Source of the DNA: a virus
Lineage: Duplodnaviria > Heunggongvirae > Uroviricota > Caudoviricetes
Reading direction: 5' to 3' (one strand)
DNA: 15,256 nucleotides
Virus record (IMG/VR): IMGVR_UViG_2526164646_000014
Shown here one piece after another: positions 5,881 to 15,256 of the stretch (positions are counted from its first letter, which is position 1; the number at the start of each line of letters is the position of its first letter). The notes beneath the pieces are model-generated. The model had not been told where the DNA came from. It searched no databases and was given only the letters and a program-made list of their open reading frames with translations. The position numbers and the translations under genes are program-made.

Positions 5881-5902
5881 ACCCGCTTTGGCGGGTTTTT
5901 TG
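5881..5902 (+). terminator. Rho-independent terminator downstream of hok
   Basis: cccgc-tttg-gcggg hairpin (5883..5895) followed by a T6 tract. Confidence 0.75.
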
Positions 5903-6046
5903 TTGCGTGCTGAATACGCAGGGTGAAAAATAACCATATATTTGATTATATACACAACAAAAATAAAAGTCATTGTACTTGCACATTAAACAATCAAATA
6001 TACGGCGTGAAATAAATATTTATCAGATTAATATTTTTGTCTCTAT

Positions 6047-6298
6047 GTGGATATAACCGTTTGTACTTATAAACCTGGGGGCATCGTGGAAAAAATAAAG
6101 AAACTATTTAGTAGCAAATACGCAGTCATACGTCGTGATGACCTGTCAGTTATAGTCGAAATGGATTACTTCCCTGAAACCCCAAAATCAATAATGTATC
6201 GTAATGGTCGAAAGGCAATTTTTTTACCGATGAGGGTAAGTGACATTATGGGAAATGATAAACTGCTGGATGAATTGCGAGTCAGAGCATCCTGTTAG
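6047..6298 (+). CDS. rem: Rem-like small prophage protein (83 aa)
   Basis: ORF with GTG start and no clear SD; position right after hok matches the Qin prophage order hokD-rem-ydfU in E. coli K-12 (recalled). Start uncertain. Confidence 0.45.
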   Translation: MDITVCTYKPGGIVEKIKKLFSSKYAVIRRDDLSVIVEMDYFPETPKSIMYRNGRKAIFLPMRVSDIMGNDKLLDELRVRASC

Positions 6299-10892: not shown

Positions 10893-10969
10893 GGCCCTTT
10901 AGCTCAGTTGGTCAGAGCGAGCGACTCATAATCGCCAGGTCGCTGGTTCAAGTCCAGCAAGGGCCACCA
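10893..10969 (+). tRNA. tRNA-Ile2 (anticodon CAU, lysidine type; formally could be Met)
   Basis: Hand-folded cloverleaf: acceptor GGCCCTT/AAGGGCC, anticodon loop CTCATAA (CAT at 10927..10929), T-loop TTCAAGT, encoded CCA; close to recalled E. coli ileX. Confidence 0.8.
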
Positions 10970-10970
10970 A

Positions 10971-11047
10971 CCACCACTAGCTCATCCGGATAGAGCATCA
11001 ACCTTCTAAGTTGACGGTGCGAGGTTCGAGTCCTCGGTGGTGGGCCA
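10971..11047 (+). tRNA. tRNA-Arg (anticodon UCU)
   Basis: Acceptor CCACCAC/GTGGTGG (unusual C1:G72), anticodon loop CTTCTAA (TCT at 11005..11007), T-arm CGAGG-TTCGAGT-CCTCG, encoded CCA. Confidence 0.75.
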
Positions 11048-11049
11048 GC

Positions 11050-11125
<76 letters not shown>

Positions 11126-11128
11126 TAT

Positions 11129-11203
<75 letters not shown>

Positions 11204-12274
11204 TGACCTTTCTTAAAGTACTCCAACCTACTGAATCCTAAGGGATACGGCTTTAAGCCTCCTTGCAGAGTTACTTACTGTAACCCACTGTGTAACCCTC
11301 TCAGGGCATACAGACATATGATTCAGCTATCCAGTAGTCACAAACTTCCAGCAGTCTACTATCTCTACCAGCGTAACGGCGTCTACTACTTCCGTCTTAG
11401 GGTCAGACAATCAAACAATGATAGAATGACCTCAATATCATTACGGACCAAGGATAGACGCACCGCTATGGCTTACTCAAGGCACATAAAGGCAGCACTC
11501 AAGGCAATACACGCAGACAGACCCAACGCTACCTACGAGGAAATGAGGGAACACCTTAAGGACATCGCTGAGTGTGAACTGTCTATGGGCCGTTCAGATC
11601 TCTTTGAGCCTGACATGAGGGATATCTACCGGGACCAATACGGAGAACTTGGTGAGAGCCTTACCGATGCTCTGGCTAGTGAGCCGCTAAGCATTGACCA
11701 GCATCGTTACATCAATGAGGCCCTGAAGGTGCTAAAAGCCTGTATGAGGCGTATCGAAGCGGGAGACAGTCAGCCTCTGATAGATTACGTCGATCTTTTT
11801 AATGATATTGATAGGCAAGATAACCAAGCAGACTCTGTGTCCCTATCTGTTAATGCTCCAGAAGTAAAACCAGAAGTTACGCCTAGCATTACCATAGCGA
11901 GCCTCTTTGAGCAATACGAAGCGGAGAACTATCAGAACTGGAAGCCTGCAACCTTAAGGGAAAACAAGGCGTCACACGCTGCGTTAATCGAAATATTCGA
12001 CCATCTGGGTCTCAATGCAGACGCTAACAGGGCTGACATGCTTAGGGTCCGTGATGTGCTCCAGCAGTTACCTAGGAACCGTAAGCAGCGCTTCAAGGAT
12101 GTCCCACTTGCTGACCTGTTGAGCCGTGAAGATAAGACAGATTGTCTGGATGTCGTTACCATCAACAACAAGTATCTTATTAAGATGGCTGCTGTCTTTA
12201 GGTGGGCTGTGCGCAATGACTTGATTAAAAAGAACATGACTGAGGGTCTGGAGCTTAAAGTCCCTCTGAAGTGG

Positions 12275-13441
<1,167 letters not shown>

Positions 13442-14259
13442 TGGAGCACCTGTGTTGTTCTGAGGTGAGCATATCACCTCTGTTCAGGTGGCCAAATTCA
13501 GTGTGCCACTTCACTCAGCGTAAAGCCTCAGGGGCCCGTAACGCCTTCTCTACGGAGCAGGTGGGGCAACTACTGGTCGCAGCTAAGGCATACTCTCAGA
13601 AGACCTCTGGTAAGCCGTATCATTATTATGTTACCGCCTTGGCTGCTATCACTGGGGCGAGACTCAATGAAATAGCCCAACTACAGGTCAAAGACGTCAG
13701 GACCACTGAGGCGGGAACCGTTTATATTCATATCAATGAAGACGATAGTAGTCTACCCGGTAAGAGCATCAAGAACGCTCATAGTGACCGCTGTGTGCCT
13801 CTGGTCGATGGGGCCTATGGTTTTATATTGGCTGACTTTATGGCGCTTGTAGAGACCCGTAGAGGCGCTGACGGTGATGACGCTATGGTGTTCGATGGTC
13901 TGCGTCTCATGAAGAACGGTTACGGTGAGCAGGTGAGTAAATGGTTTAATCGGACGTTGTTGCCTAAAGTCCTCGTAGACCGTAGCGGCTTAGCGTTTCA
14001 CTCGTTTAGACATACAGTTGCGACCCAGTTAAAACAACATGGGGTCGAGTTGGCGTATGCACAGGCGATCATGGGGCATAGTTCAGGGTCTATTACGTAC
14101 GACCGTTATGCTAAAGAGGTCGAGGTTGATAGGCTGGTCAATGTGATGGCTGATGTTTATAAGGAGACCTAGAGGAGACCATAGTCTAGGATGACACTTA
14201 CTACAGACCTGTGTGGTCATGTTTTTGACTCATAGTTTTCTCTACTTGTCAAGGATAAT

Positions 14260-14282
14260 TAATACGACTCACTATAGGGAGA
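14260..14282 (+). promoter_or_regulatory. Perfect T7 RNA polymerase class III promoter consensus (TAATACGACTCACTATAGGGAGA), +1 G at 14277
   Basis: Exact 23/23 match to the T7 -17..+6 consensus read directly from the sequence; points rightward toward the repeat region and the Rha-like gene. Confidence 0.85.
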
Positions 14283-14480
14283 AGGGACACAAAAAGTTTT
14301 CTCTTCTAGGACAACTAACCGTAACTTATCGCATCCTTTCAGGGGCGGGATGACCAATTACAGACACCAAGCGTTCTACTTAAAGTGAATGCTTCCTGTG
14401 TGCTCTGGGTCAGTCGATAAGTGAATAGCAATAAGACACAATCATCTTAATTATGGTCTCTAGTCCCTACAGGGGCTTAA

Positions 14481-14565
14481 CTTAAAGTTAACTTAAAGAC
14501 ACAATTAAAGATTAACTTATAGTATTACTTAAAGTTAACTTAAAGACACAATTAGAGATTAACTT
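14481..14565. repeat. AT-rich tandem duplication (38-bp unit cttaaagttaacttaaagacacaatta[a/g]agattaactt, period 47 bp) inside a ~140-bp AT-rich tract rich in TTAAAG
   Basis: Copies at 14481..14518 and 14528..14565 differ at one position; additional TTAAAG / ATTAAAGA motifs extend to about 14615. Confidence 0.8.
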
Positions 14566-14666
14566 TAAGTATTAAATAAAAGATTTAATTAAAGACCAAT
14601 TAAAGATTAACTCTAAGGGAATACCTTAAGGGGTGATGATATTTATAATAATCAATCACCAAACCT

Positions 14667-14743
14667 ATAGGTCTTCTCTAGGGTCTCTCTATAGGTCTTC
14701 TCTATGGTCTCTCTATAGGTCTCTCTAGGGTCTCCTCTAGGCA
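14667..14743 (+). repeat. Iteron array B: about 6 direct copies of a 12-bp unit (A/G)GGTCT(C/T)TCTCTA
   Basis: aggtcttctcta gggtctctctat aggtcttctctat ggtctctctat aggtctctct agggtctcctctagg, read directly. Confidence 0.8.
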
Positions 14744-14760
14744 TTACCCCCAGAAGCTAA

Positions 14761-14800
14761 CTCTATGGCCCTCTATGGTCCTCTATGGTCCTCTATGGCC
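14761..14800 (+). repeat. Iteron array C: 4 perfect tandem 10-bp units CTCTATGG(C/T)C
   Basis: ctctatggcc ctctatggtc ctctatggtc ctctatggcc. Confidence 0.85.
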
Positions 14801-14847
14801 CTGTACGTCATTCTTTAGGATGCCCTGTAGTTTCGTATAGCCTGATG

Positions 14848-14892
14848 CCTAGAGAGACCCTAGAGAGACCCTAGAGTGGCTCCTAGAGAGAC
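14848..14892 (-). repeat. Iteron array D: 4 copies of CCTAGAGAGAC (reverse complement of the array B unit)
   Basis: cctagagagac cctagagagac cctagagtggct cctagagagac; reverse complement GTCTCTCTAGG matches array B units. Confidence 0.8.
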
Positions 14893-15055
14893 CCTCCCAG
14901 TAGCTCCGCACAGCTACATCGTCATCATCATAGTATTCAATCTCAAAGTCATTCTGTTTGCATCCTGTTGTCCTGCTGGTCTCCCTTCGCTTGGGGACTT
15001 TGAGTAGGTCAGTGGGGGTGCGACTTCAGGGTGCAAACAAAAAGGAAATCAAGCG

Positions 15056-15228
15056 ATGTCTCAACAACCACAACAACCACAACAACCACAACAACCACAA
15101 CAAGAAATCAGCATCATTAACCTCGACCAGCTTGTGTCCATGACCTCAGTTGAAATTGCTGAGCTGACAGGCAAGGAGCACCGAAATGTCCTTCGTGATA
15201 TTCGTAAGATGCTCGAAGAACTTAACGC
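15056..15228 (+). pseudogene. Phage regulatory protein Rha-like (N-terminal 57 codons), truncated by IS1
   Basis: SD agga at 15043..15046; MSQQPQQPQQPQQPQQEISIINLDQLVSMTSVEIAELTGKEHRNVLRDIRKMLEELNA then the IS1 end; the SVEIAELTGKEHRNVLRDIRK stretch resembles the Rha family N-terminus (recalled). Confidence 0.6.
15062..15103 (+). repeat. In-frame 9-bp tandem repeat (CAACAACCA x4.7) encoding (QQP)n
   Basis: caacaacca repeated, read directly in the Rha-like ORF. Confidence 0.9.
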
Positions 15229-15256
15229 GGGTAATGCTGCCAACTTACTGATTTAG
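15229..15256 (+). mobile_element. IS1, terminal 28 bp of a second copy (runs off the window), inverted relative to the copy at 6301..7068
   Basis: GGTAATGCTGCCAACTTACTGATTTAG is identical to the end of the first copy at 7068..7042 (reverse complement). Confidence 0.85.

Follow-up and report, generated by a model that had tools for sequence, protein, structure and literature searches.

A T7 promoter and an AT-rich repeat tract in a tRNA-Gly integrative island of Escherichia coli: candidate origin of a probable satellite of T7-like phages

The sequence analyzed here (hereafter, the window) is a 15,256-nt stretch held as virus record IMGVR_UViG_2526164646_000014, and the feature under study is a 140-bp AT-rich tract at 14476–14615, downstream of a T7 promoter. 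The window was found to be part of an E. coli/Shigella chromosome. Up to ~11.2 kb it consists of a Rac-like lambdoid prophage with numerous insertion sequences, which is followed by an integrative island that includes the tract. The tract, which an initial annotation likened to T7 origins and genome ends, is thus located not in a T7-like phage but in this chromosomal island. The features of the island present in the window are the following.

11129–11203, + strand: tRNA-Gly(TCC), the integration site (attL side), identified with ARAGORN.
11318–12266, + strand: N-terminal part of the integrase (tyrosine integrase; open reading frame 11318–12340), cut off by an insertion sequence.
11833–11851, + strand: 19-mer CTCTGTGTCCCT|ATCTGTT, matching a terminal-repeat end and concatemer junction, within the integrase coding sequence.
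12267–13513, no strand assigned: IS3-family insertion sequence, foreign to the island (blastn against the related loci L026 and L024; insertion-sequence annotations under the matches).
13514–14172, + strand: C-terminal part of the integrase, including the catalytic-tyrosine region (open reading frame 13441–14172).
14260–14282, + strand: exact T7 class III-type promoter, with +1 at 14277 and phiOR-like flanks.
14310–14440, + strand: conserved block of ~105–130 nt in the promoter-tract interval, with core CATCCTTTCAGGGGCGGGATG at 14332–14352.
14476–14615, + strand: AT-rich YTAAAG array of 23/47-nt units, the candidate easily melted half of a T7-type origin.
14630–14660, + strand: inverted repeat GGGGTGATGAT...ATCACC (GGTGAT...ATCACC), directly 3′ of the tract.
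14665–14895, + strand: three short-repeat arrays (CTATAGGTCTCT, six copies; CTCTATGGYC, four copies; inverted CCTAGAGAGAC, four copies).
14948–15042, + strand: conserved leader GTCATTCTGTTTGCATCCTGT...CTGCTGGTCTCCCTT, with an inverted repeat at 14952–14972 / 15022–15042.
15056–15256, + strand: first 66 aa of a Rha-family regulator gene (Pfam Phage_pRha, E = 7e-10).

The tract and the elements around it

The tract was 80.7% A+T, compared with 50.8% for the whole window, and it coincided with the richest 140-bp A+T stretch of the window (81.4%, starting at 14477). The runner-up A+T segment (5926–6065, 76.4%) lies inside the prophage part. Tandem Repeats Finder reported 2.9 copies of a 47-nt period at 14477–14612 (86% matches), with sub-periods of 23 and 11, and the two 47-nt copies delimited by a repeat search (14480–14526 and 14527–14573) showed three mismatches. 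The longest repeat stretch with one mismatch or fewer was 39 nt (14480–14518). TTAAAG was present seven times (mean 0.15, maximum 3 in 2000 composition shuffles), ATTAAAGA three times, and CTTAAAG four times. These results agree with the initial description of ~140 bp of roughly 80% A+T, with a 38-bp unit duplicated with one mismatch and many TTAAAG motifs. The YTAAAG words in 14451–14650 (seven) were exclusively on the + strand. As a single strand, the tract folded better than its shuffles (−17.1 vs. −8.4 ± 2.2 kcal/mol). The number of array units differed among strains: the sister copy L026 lacks the 47-nt duplication, and two other copies (L001 and L002) are arranged otherwise. The duplication is therefore best regarded as strain-level copy-number variation of a conserved array.

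The T7 promoter TAATACGACTCACTATAGGGAGA (14260–14282, + strand) was exact (23/23) and was the sole match in the window at three mismatches or fewer (0 expected). The tract begins 199 nt downstream of its +1, on the same strand. The promoter flanks were closest to those of phiOR (42 nt at 86% vs. T7 39209–39250), and the sister E. coli islands carried one, two, or three tandem T7 promoters.

The conserved block that separates promoter and tract was kept in the E. coli, Klebsiella, Rouxiella, Morganella, Edaphovirga, and metagenome copies. The outer helix predicted by RNAalifold (ACTTATCG/CGATAAGT) showed compensatory changes in L004 (Klebsiella pneumoniae ATCC 13883) and in L034 (a metagenome contig), and the block may correspond to a structured RNA transcribed by the phage polymerase. 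No credible Rfam family matched the block or the region, and scans of the region for host promoters and terminators gave chance level only.

In the alignment of related copies, the elements kept a fixed frame: a conserved leader ending in CAGGGGC, then the YTAAAG array, then CTCTAAGGGAATACCTTAAGGGG-TGATGAT...ATCACC. The pattern GTGAT-N(4-30)-ATCAC occurred once each in the window, the Klebsiella locus, the whole T7 genome (39330), and the whole K11 genome (40609). It was also found in the right ends of T3 and KP32, and the phage copies were always located between phiOR and gene 19.5. As a hairpin, GGTGAT...ATCACC was thermodynamically weak (z −1.2 to −1.7); therefore, we treated it as a conserved sequence motif, and it was not equated with the published T7 "M-hairpin." Because the promoter flanks are phiOR-like and the same repeat follows the tract, the module parallels a phage unit made of promoter, AT-rich segment, and inverted repeat.

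The three arrays at 14665–14895 form long imperfect inverted repeats and carry T7 primase recognition words (GGGTC, TGGTC, and GTGTC). By reading of short motifs, their units also resemble the T3/T7 terminal-repeat end (TCTCTATGTGTCCCT; TCTCT(A)TGTGTCCCT). There were 21 primase words in the 883 bp of non-coding DNA at 14173–15055 (z = 8.9), and nearly every short-repeat family had one. Most were on the − strand to the left of ~14620, and all were on the + strand at 14681–14786; three sites were inside the tract (GACAC twice and GACCA). In E. coli FT130 (L002), a GATGACCATAGGC array of 13 tandem units, which the window lacks, is located directly past the integrase stop codon (12664–12832), and each unit contains one T7 primase word on the − strand. 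The leader at 14948–15042 was conserved across genera. Its inverted repeat reaches the ribosome-binding region just upstream of the rha start codon and could control rha translation.

Similarity to T7 origins and genome ends

In T7, every origin pairs a T7 promoter with an adjacent AT-rich region, in which transcripts from the polymerase serve as primers for the phage DNA polymerase. The primary origin comprises phi1.1A/B and an AT-rich segment, whereas phiOL and phiOR are secondary origins. The tract was scanned against the complete T7 genome, on both strands, and against the whole K11 genome, with significance assessed by dinucleotide shuffles. The best T7 alignments, all on the + strand, were to the AT region of the primary origin (~5901–6100), the sequence downstream of phiOL (~351–550), the left short-repeat array, SRL, and the sequence downstream of phi6.5. 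Tract-T7 scores were 37–38 compared with 20–22 ± 3.8 for shuffles (about 4 standard deviations), and 2 or fewer of 500 shuffles reached them. In K11, the best alignments, likewise on the + strand, were just downstream of phiOR, phi1.05, and phi6.5. The tract of the K. pneumoniae island showed the same pattern, with a score of 49 at the T7 primary origin (downstream of phi1.1B).

The alignment to T7-family genome ends and origins suggested with the initial annotation thus gave its best matches, all on the + strand, at sites that include the primary origin, phiOL, and SRL. The primary-origin layout proposed there was recovered in part. As in T7 origins, the promoter has downstream of it, on its own strand, an AT-rich segment that contains CTTAAAG/CTTTAAG words and aligns to T7 origins, and GGTGAT...ATCACC follows as it does after phiOR. 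Unlike in T7 origins, the two parts are not adjacent but are separated by a 199-nt spacer with a conserved, possibly structured block, the array has been expanded to 140 bp by tandem duplication, and the setting is chromosomal.

The likeness to T7 genome-end repeats was also partial. T7 has nine YTAAAG words in 151–350 and five in 39651–39850, which cluster on one strand as they do in the tract, and the score of the tract against SRL was 34 (19 ± 3 for shuffles). The tract showed no similarity to the right short-repeat array, SRR (14 vs. 16.7 for shuffles), and the resemblance to the genome ends was at the level of words only. The position also differs from that of the end arrays in that the tract does not flank a terminal repeat: the junction motif is at 11833–11851, and the homologue of the repeat start lies by attR in related islands.

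These two elements were themselves clear counterparts of T7 genome-end signals. The 19-mer CTCTGTGTCCCT|ATCTGTT (CTCTGTGTCCCTATCTGTT) had one exact match in the window (0.01 expected). It is identical at T7 149–167 and K11 170–188, where it overlaps the "concatemeric junction" feature of K11 (180–188); the T7 polymerase pauses at the concatemer junction. The 19-mer was exact in six related loci (L004, L006, L007, L025, L026, and L033) and had a close match in most others. It is located ~500 nt into the integrase gene, where the window frame reads …D S V S L S V N…; the TCCCTATCTGT core was kept at the DNA level in most integrase genes, and the neighbouring codons diverged.

A homologue of the T7/T3/K11 pre-repeat and terminal-repeat start was found near the right ends of the islands, before attR. 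In E. coli FT130 it reads tttaaaatttCCCACAAAAATCTCAGcgtctatctaatagt...ttcccccata, compared with tttaaaatatACCATAAAAATCTGAGtgactatctcacagt...ttcccccata in T7 at 39756. The FT130 island and T7 aligned over 72 nt at 74% (score 47), and the Klebsiella island and T3 aligned over 45 nt at 87% (score 60); shuffles scored ~18 ± 2.5 (z above 10). Promoters, repeat start, and junction motif were all on the + strand. In the integrated island, the repeat-like sequence is split between the two ends, and excision would rejoin it across attP. In L004, the inverted repeat is immediately followed by ACTCACAGTCCTCTGTGTCTCC, a sequence that resembles a repeat start joined to a repeat end.

A circular assembly was seen in one relative, L034. 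This 6,628-bp metagenome contig has a 141-bp terminal overlap and is therefore taken to be a 6,487-bp circle. It has neither a tRNA gene nor flanking host sequence, and its gene order was permuted (capsid, 45-aa membrane protein, pre-repeat/repeat start, integrase); a contig from a second sample (L035) showed the same permutation. The gene for the 45-aa membrane protein, just before the pre-repeat motif, occupies the position of gene 19.5 in T7.

The island family and the copy in the window

Homologues of 13520–15256 were present in 264 of 5426 complete E. coli genomes, always in the chromosome and always beside a "site-specific integrase." Among 50,697 phage genomes, blastn with 14100–15256 matched the promoter alone, in Salmonella phage Vi06, and the tract was found in none. 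Two E. coli islands that were inspected were 4.2–4.3 kb long and bounded by 23-bp direct repeats of the tRNA-Gly(CCC) 3′ end; they were made up of an integrase gene, a region of ~1 kb with the repeats and promoters, a gene for a KilA-N protein, and a further small gene. With the integrase as query, 20 additional loci were found (Klebsiella, Pectobacterium, Proteus, Morganella, Citrobacter, Buttiauxella, Kluyvera, Serratia, Rouxiella, Lonsdalea, and others). Most of these were at tRNA-Gly(CCC), with att repeats of 17–23 bp and sizes of 5.5–6.5 kb. Across the family, the islands showed satellite-like features: their own integrase, att sites, a length of 4.2–6.5 kb, and the lack of most virion genes.

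Nearly all loci had one to four promoters of the form ...CACTATAGGGAG, a few hundred bp past the integrase gene and all on the + strand, and the specificity regions of these promoters varied between hosts. K. pneumoniae ATCC 13883 carried four promoters: two of K11 type, one exact (23/23) and one matching at 22/23 positions, an exact T7 promoter, and a fourth of another type. The order of promoter, ~200–440 nt, and AT array was kept in about half of 24 related islands.

The larger islands were arranged as integrase, DUF4145 gene, promoter/repeat region, Rha/KilA-N/Bro-N regulator, ~68-aa protein, DUF6971, and a 330–400-aa protein. The DUF4145 gene, which adjoins the integrase gene and is lacking in the island type of the window, was PD-T7-4 (E = 8e-99). 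This anti-T7 defence gene has been renamed RAZR and is activated by the portal rings of T7 and T3 (PMC13017515), and it "often overlaps an integrase gene" (preprint 10.1101/2022.05.12.491691). Term searches of the main text of that preprint found no "T7 promoter" and no description of the island as a satellite, and term searches of the RAZR paper (PMC13017515) found no "integrase," "satellite," "mobile genetic," or "island" in the text covered.

Searches of PDB, Pfam, and PHROGs with the sequence of the 375-aa protein (402-aa open reading frame) gave nothing. Its AlphaFold model (pLDDT 62) matched HK97-fold capsid and encapsulin shells in all 50 matches listed (E ~1e-7, probability 1.0). The larger islands thus appear to encode an HK97-fold capsid protein; the model is of modest confidence, and the fold matches are unanimous. 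No portal or terminase was recognisable among the genes of the larger islands. The 6.4-kb island of K. pneumoniae ATCC 13883 (L004 6001–12281) combines RAZR/PD-T7-4, DUF6971, the capsid gene, and four promoters of three specificities (K11, T7, and a third).

In the window, the prophage carries a cluster of four tRNA genes (10893–11203; Met, Arg, Thr, and Gly-TCC), and the island is inserted at the last of them, which places a putative T7 satellite inside a lambdoid prophage. The usual site in relatives is the chromosomal tRNA-Gly(CCC), unlike in the window copy. The sequence right after tRNA-Gly(TCC) (tgacctttcttaaagta...) matched the attL-to-integrase spacer of related islands, and attL alone was present for this copy. 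Its integrase gene (11318–14172) is split by an insertion sequence and was collinear with the uninterrupted integrase copy of L026 except for the ~1.25-kb insertion; the orthologous integrase of L004 matched Pfam Phage_integrase. The promoter and the tract lie in a non-coding interval of ~880 bp that separates the integrase gene from rha. Because insertion sequences cut both integrase and rha, the window copy is probably no longer mobile.

Interpretation and alternative explanations

The island copies the promoters, the origin layout, and the genome-end signals of T7-like phages and is, for this reason, a probable satellite (parasite) of these phages, apparently undescribed. Full-text literature searches returned no description of these islands and no natural satellite of T7, although such absence is no proof of novelty. 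We place the tract, with fair certainty, in the cis-acting region of an element that exploits T7-like phages. That it is specifically the AT-rich half of a phage-polymerase-primed T7-type origin, which would amplify the island after infection, we consider a matter of even chances.

From the sequence features, we infer that the island would be transcribed, unwound, primed, and replicated, and that it would be excised upon infection and packaged. The RNA polymerase of the infecting phage would fire the island promoter, and transcription would proceed into the array, which at 81% A+T should melt more easily than any other part of the region. As at the origins of T7 itself, the phage DNA polymerase and primase-helicase would then be able to start DNA synthesis there, by way of the transcript or the opened duplex, and the excised island would be amplified into concatemers. 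The T7-type pre-repeat, repeat-start, and repeat-end/junction signals, rejoined across attP, would let the phage terminase process and package the island; the expected ends would be at TATCTAATAGT... and ...GTGTCCCT. The 6-kb members would be packaged into HK97-fold capsids of their own, and the 4-kb members, as multimers, into capsids of the helper. Plasmids with a T7 origin and concatemer junction, the subject of work by Chung and Hinkle in 1990, are reportedly packaged by T7. T7 heads also take up a plasmid with the T7 Pac signal (PMC9860248). Natural counterparts to all of these parts are present in the island.

A broader model, which we put forward only tentatively and rate below even chances, takes the tract to be the replication origin of a so far undescribed family of satellites that exploit T7-like virulent phages. 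Such islands would sense infection through promoters for the polymerase of the invader, with single islands stacking promoters for several phage types. The structured leader RNA and the expanded array would prime the phage replisome, as the RNA II primer does in ColE1. The T7-type terminal repeat, whose end and pause signal would lie within the integrase reading frame, would be restored across attP and would direct packaging by the terminase of the helper into mini-capsids encoded by the island, and the islands would also deliver the anti-T7 RNase RAZR.

Several observations weigh against the origin and satellite readings. The similarity to T7 origins was weak in blastn (64–77% over 31–86 nt), and composition contributes to the tract scores because the matched sites are the AT-richest parts of T7 and K11; the consistent strand, in turn, points to oriented words in common, for example AACTTAAAGA, TTAACTTTAAGAC, and GATTTAATTAAAGA. 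The AT-rich segment of T7 starts within ~20 nt of its promoter, compared with 199 nt after +1 in the island. The enrichment in primase words was real in the E. coli islands, yet it was repeat-driven, and there was none in the Klebsiella island; therefore, these words were kept out of the main evidence. One clade (Citrobacter/Buttiauxella/Enterobacter and one E. coli/Shigella type) has promoters and the capsid gene without the AT array and inverted repeat, so some members of the family do without the tract. Exact-word scans of IMG/VR with the conserved block, the tract unit, and the flanking array found the same islands only, in regions of isolate genomes, which gives no virion evidence. The exact E. 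coli/Klebsiella-type attP-junction pattern was absent from the metagenome contigs scanned, and the 23 copies found in these contigs with the conserved block were all integrated or partial.

The alternative that fares best, although we consider it unlikely, is that the tract is a packaging-recognition or decoy array. The small terminase of the helper would bind the flanking arrays and the inverted repeat together with the YTAAAG words, as a pacB-like signal, and this would direct packaging or titrate terminase ("phage growth interference"). Sequences for packaging specificity are said to be linked to growth interference (Tsuchida et al., 1996, by title). The strand-specific YTAAAG clusters of T7-group genome ends, the likeness of the module to the phiOR-to-19.5 region at the right genome end, and the true homologues of repeat start and repeat end/junction in the island are all consistent with this role. 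So is the packaging of Pac-carrying plasmids into T7 heads, in which gp18 recognises PacB and gp19 cuts PacC (PMC9860248). However, the tract does not resemble SRR any more than its shuffles do, it is ~2.6 kb from the junction motif and not beside the repeat-like sequence, and in T7 it matches best at phiOL and at the primary origin, which is internal.

We consider it rather less probable that the tract serves as a transcribed 5′ leader made by the phage polymerase, or as an array of sites for the Rha/KilA-N/Bro-N regulator, that tunes the downstream genes. All promoters face the capsid and rha/kilA genes, compensatory base changes occur in the block that precedes the tract, the conserved inverted repeat covers the rha ribosome-binding region, and the single-stranded tract folds better than shuffles. 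In contrast, second promoters are often located downstream of the tract, nearer the genes, the array varies freely in copy number among strains, and no Rfam match was obtained; moreover, the iterated word is that of T7 ends and origins and no obvious operator.

It is improbable that the tract is a functionless, slippage-prone AT spacer in a decaying island, possibly a silencer bound by H-NS. Two insertion sequences interrupt the island of the window, strains differ in repeat number, and the tract is missing from one clade, as this explanation would lead one to expect. Against it, the position, orientation, word content, and flanking blocks of the array were kept across several genera, and the matches to phage origins were strand-specific. 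The exact 23-nt consensus promoter is what expression vectors carry, but an artefact (a pET-type cloning vector or a fragment of a T7-like prophage) has a negligible probability because the locus is chromosomal in the E. coli genomes counted above and always beside an integrase, recurs in ~20 other Enterobacterales species with differing promoter specificities, and, beyond promoters, has no blastn-level match to T7 and no plasmid match.

Among known systems, the T7 Pac/concatemer-junction plasmids (PMC9860248) are like the island in being small replicons with a T7 promoter/origin and repeat and junction signals, of all of which the island has homologues. Unlike these plasmids, the island is natural and adds an integrase, att sites, and regulators, with capsid and defence genes in the larger members, and its repeat-like sequence extends over attP and into the integrase gene. 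PICMIs (phage-inducible chromosomal minimalist islands; PMC10803314) are likewise described as satellites of virulent phages that are very small, have a reduced set of genes, and are packaged as concatemers. They belong to the Vibrionaceae, next to fis, and have other core genes; in contrast, the islands belong to the Enterobacterales and have tRNA-Gly sites, phage-polymerase promoters, T7-type end signals, and, in some cases, a capsid protein. Host, site, and genes differ, and an assignment of the islands to PICMI was rejected. The cf-PICIs (capsid-forming PICIs) share with the larger islands an own HK97-fold capsid protein but are described as supplying the complete set of capsid and packaging proteins themselves and borrowing tails only. 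The islands have one capsid gene and DUF6971, are 2–3 times smaller, and have no detectable portal or terminase; an assignment to cf-PICI was rejected as well.

T7 is the model virulent phage. If the satellite interpretation is true, the islands exemplify a new strategy by which a mobile element detects a lytic phage and exploits it, with borrowed promoters, origin layout, and end signals, and the genomic home of the RAZR/PD-T7-4 defence gene is explained. They would also provide natural T7-type origin and packaging signals that can be tested with standard T7 genetics, and they suggest natural small vehicles for T7-family transduction. Many wild E. coli and Klebsiella strains have exact T7 and K11 promoters in their chromosomes, which matters for "orthogonal" expression from phage polymerases in natural isolates.

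At the edge of the window, the rha gene is truncated by an IS1 end (~15228–15256); L026 showed the same truncation, followed by the IS1 genes. A perfect CAACAACCA repeat of 4.7 copies at 15062–15103 encodes the Q/P-rich Rha-like N-terminus and has fewer units in L026.

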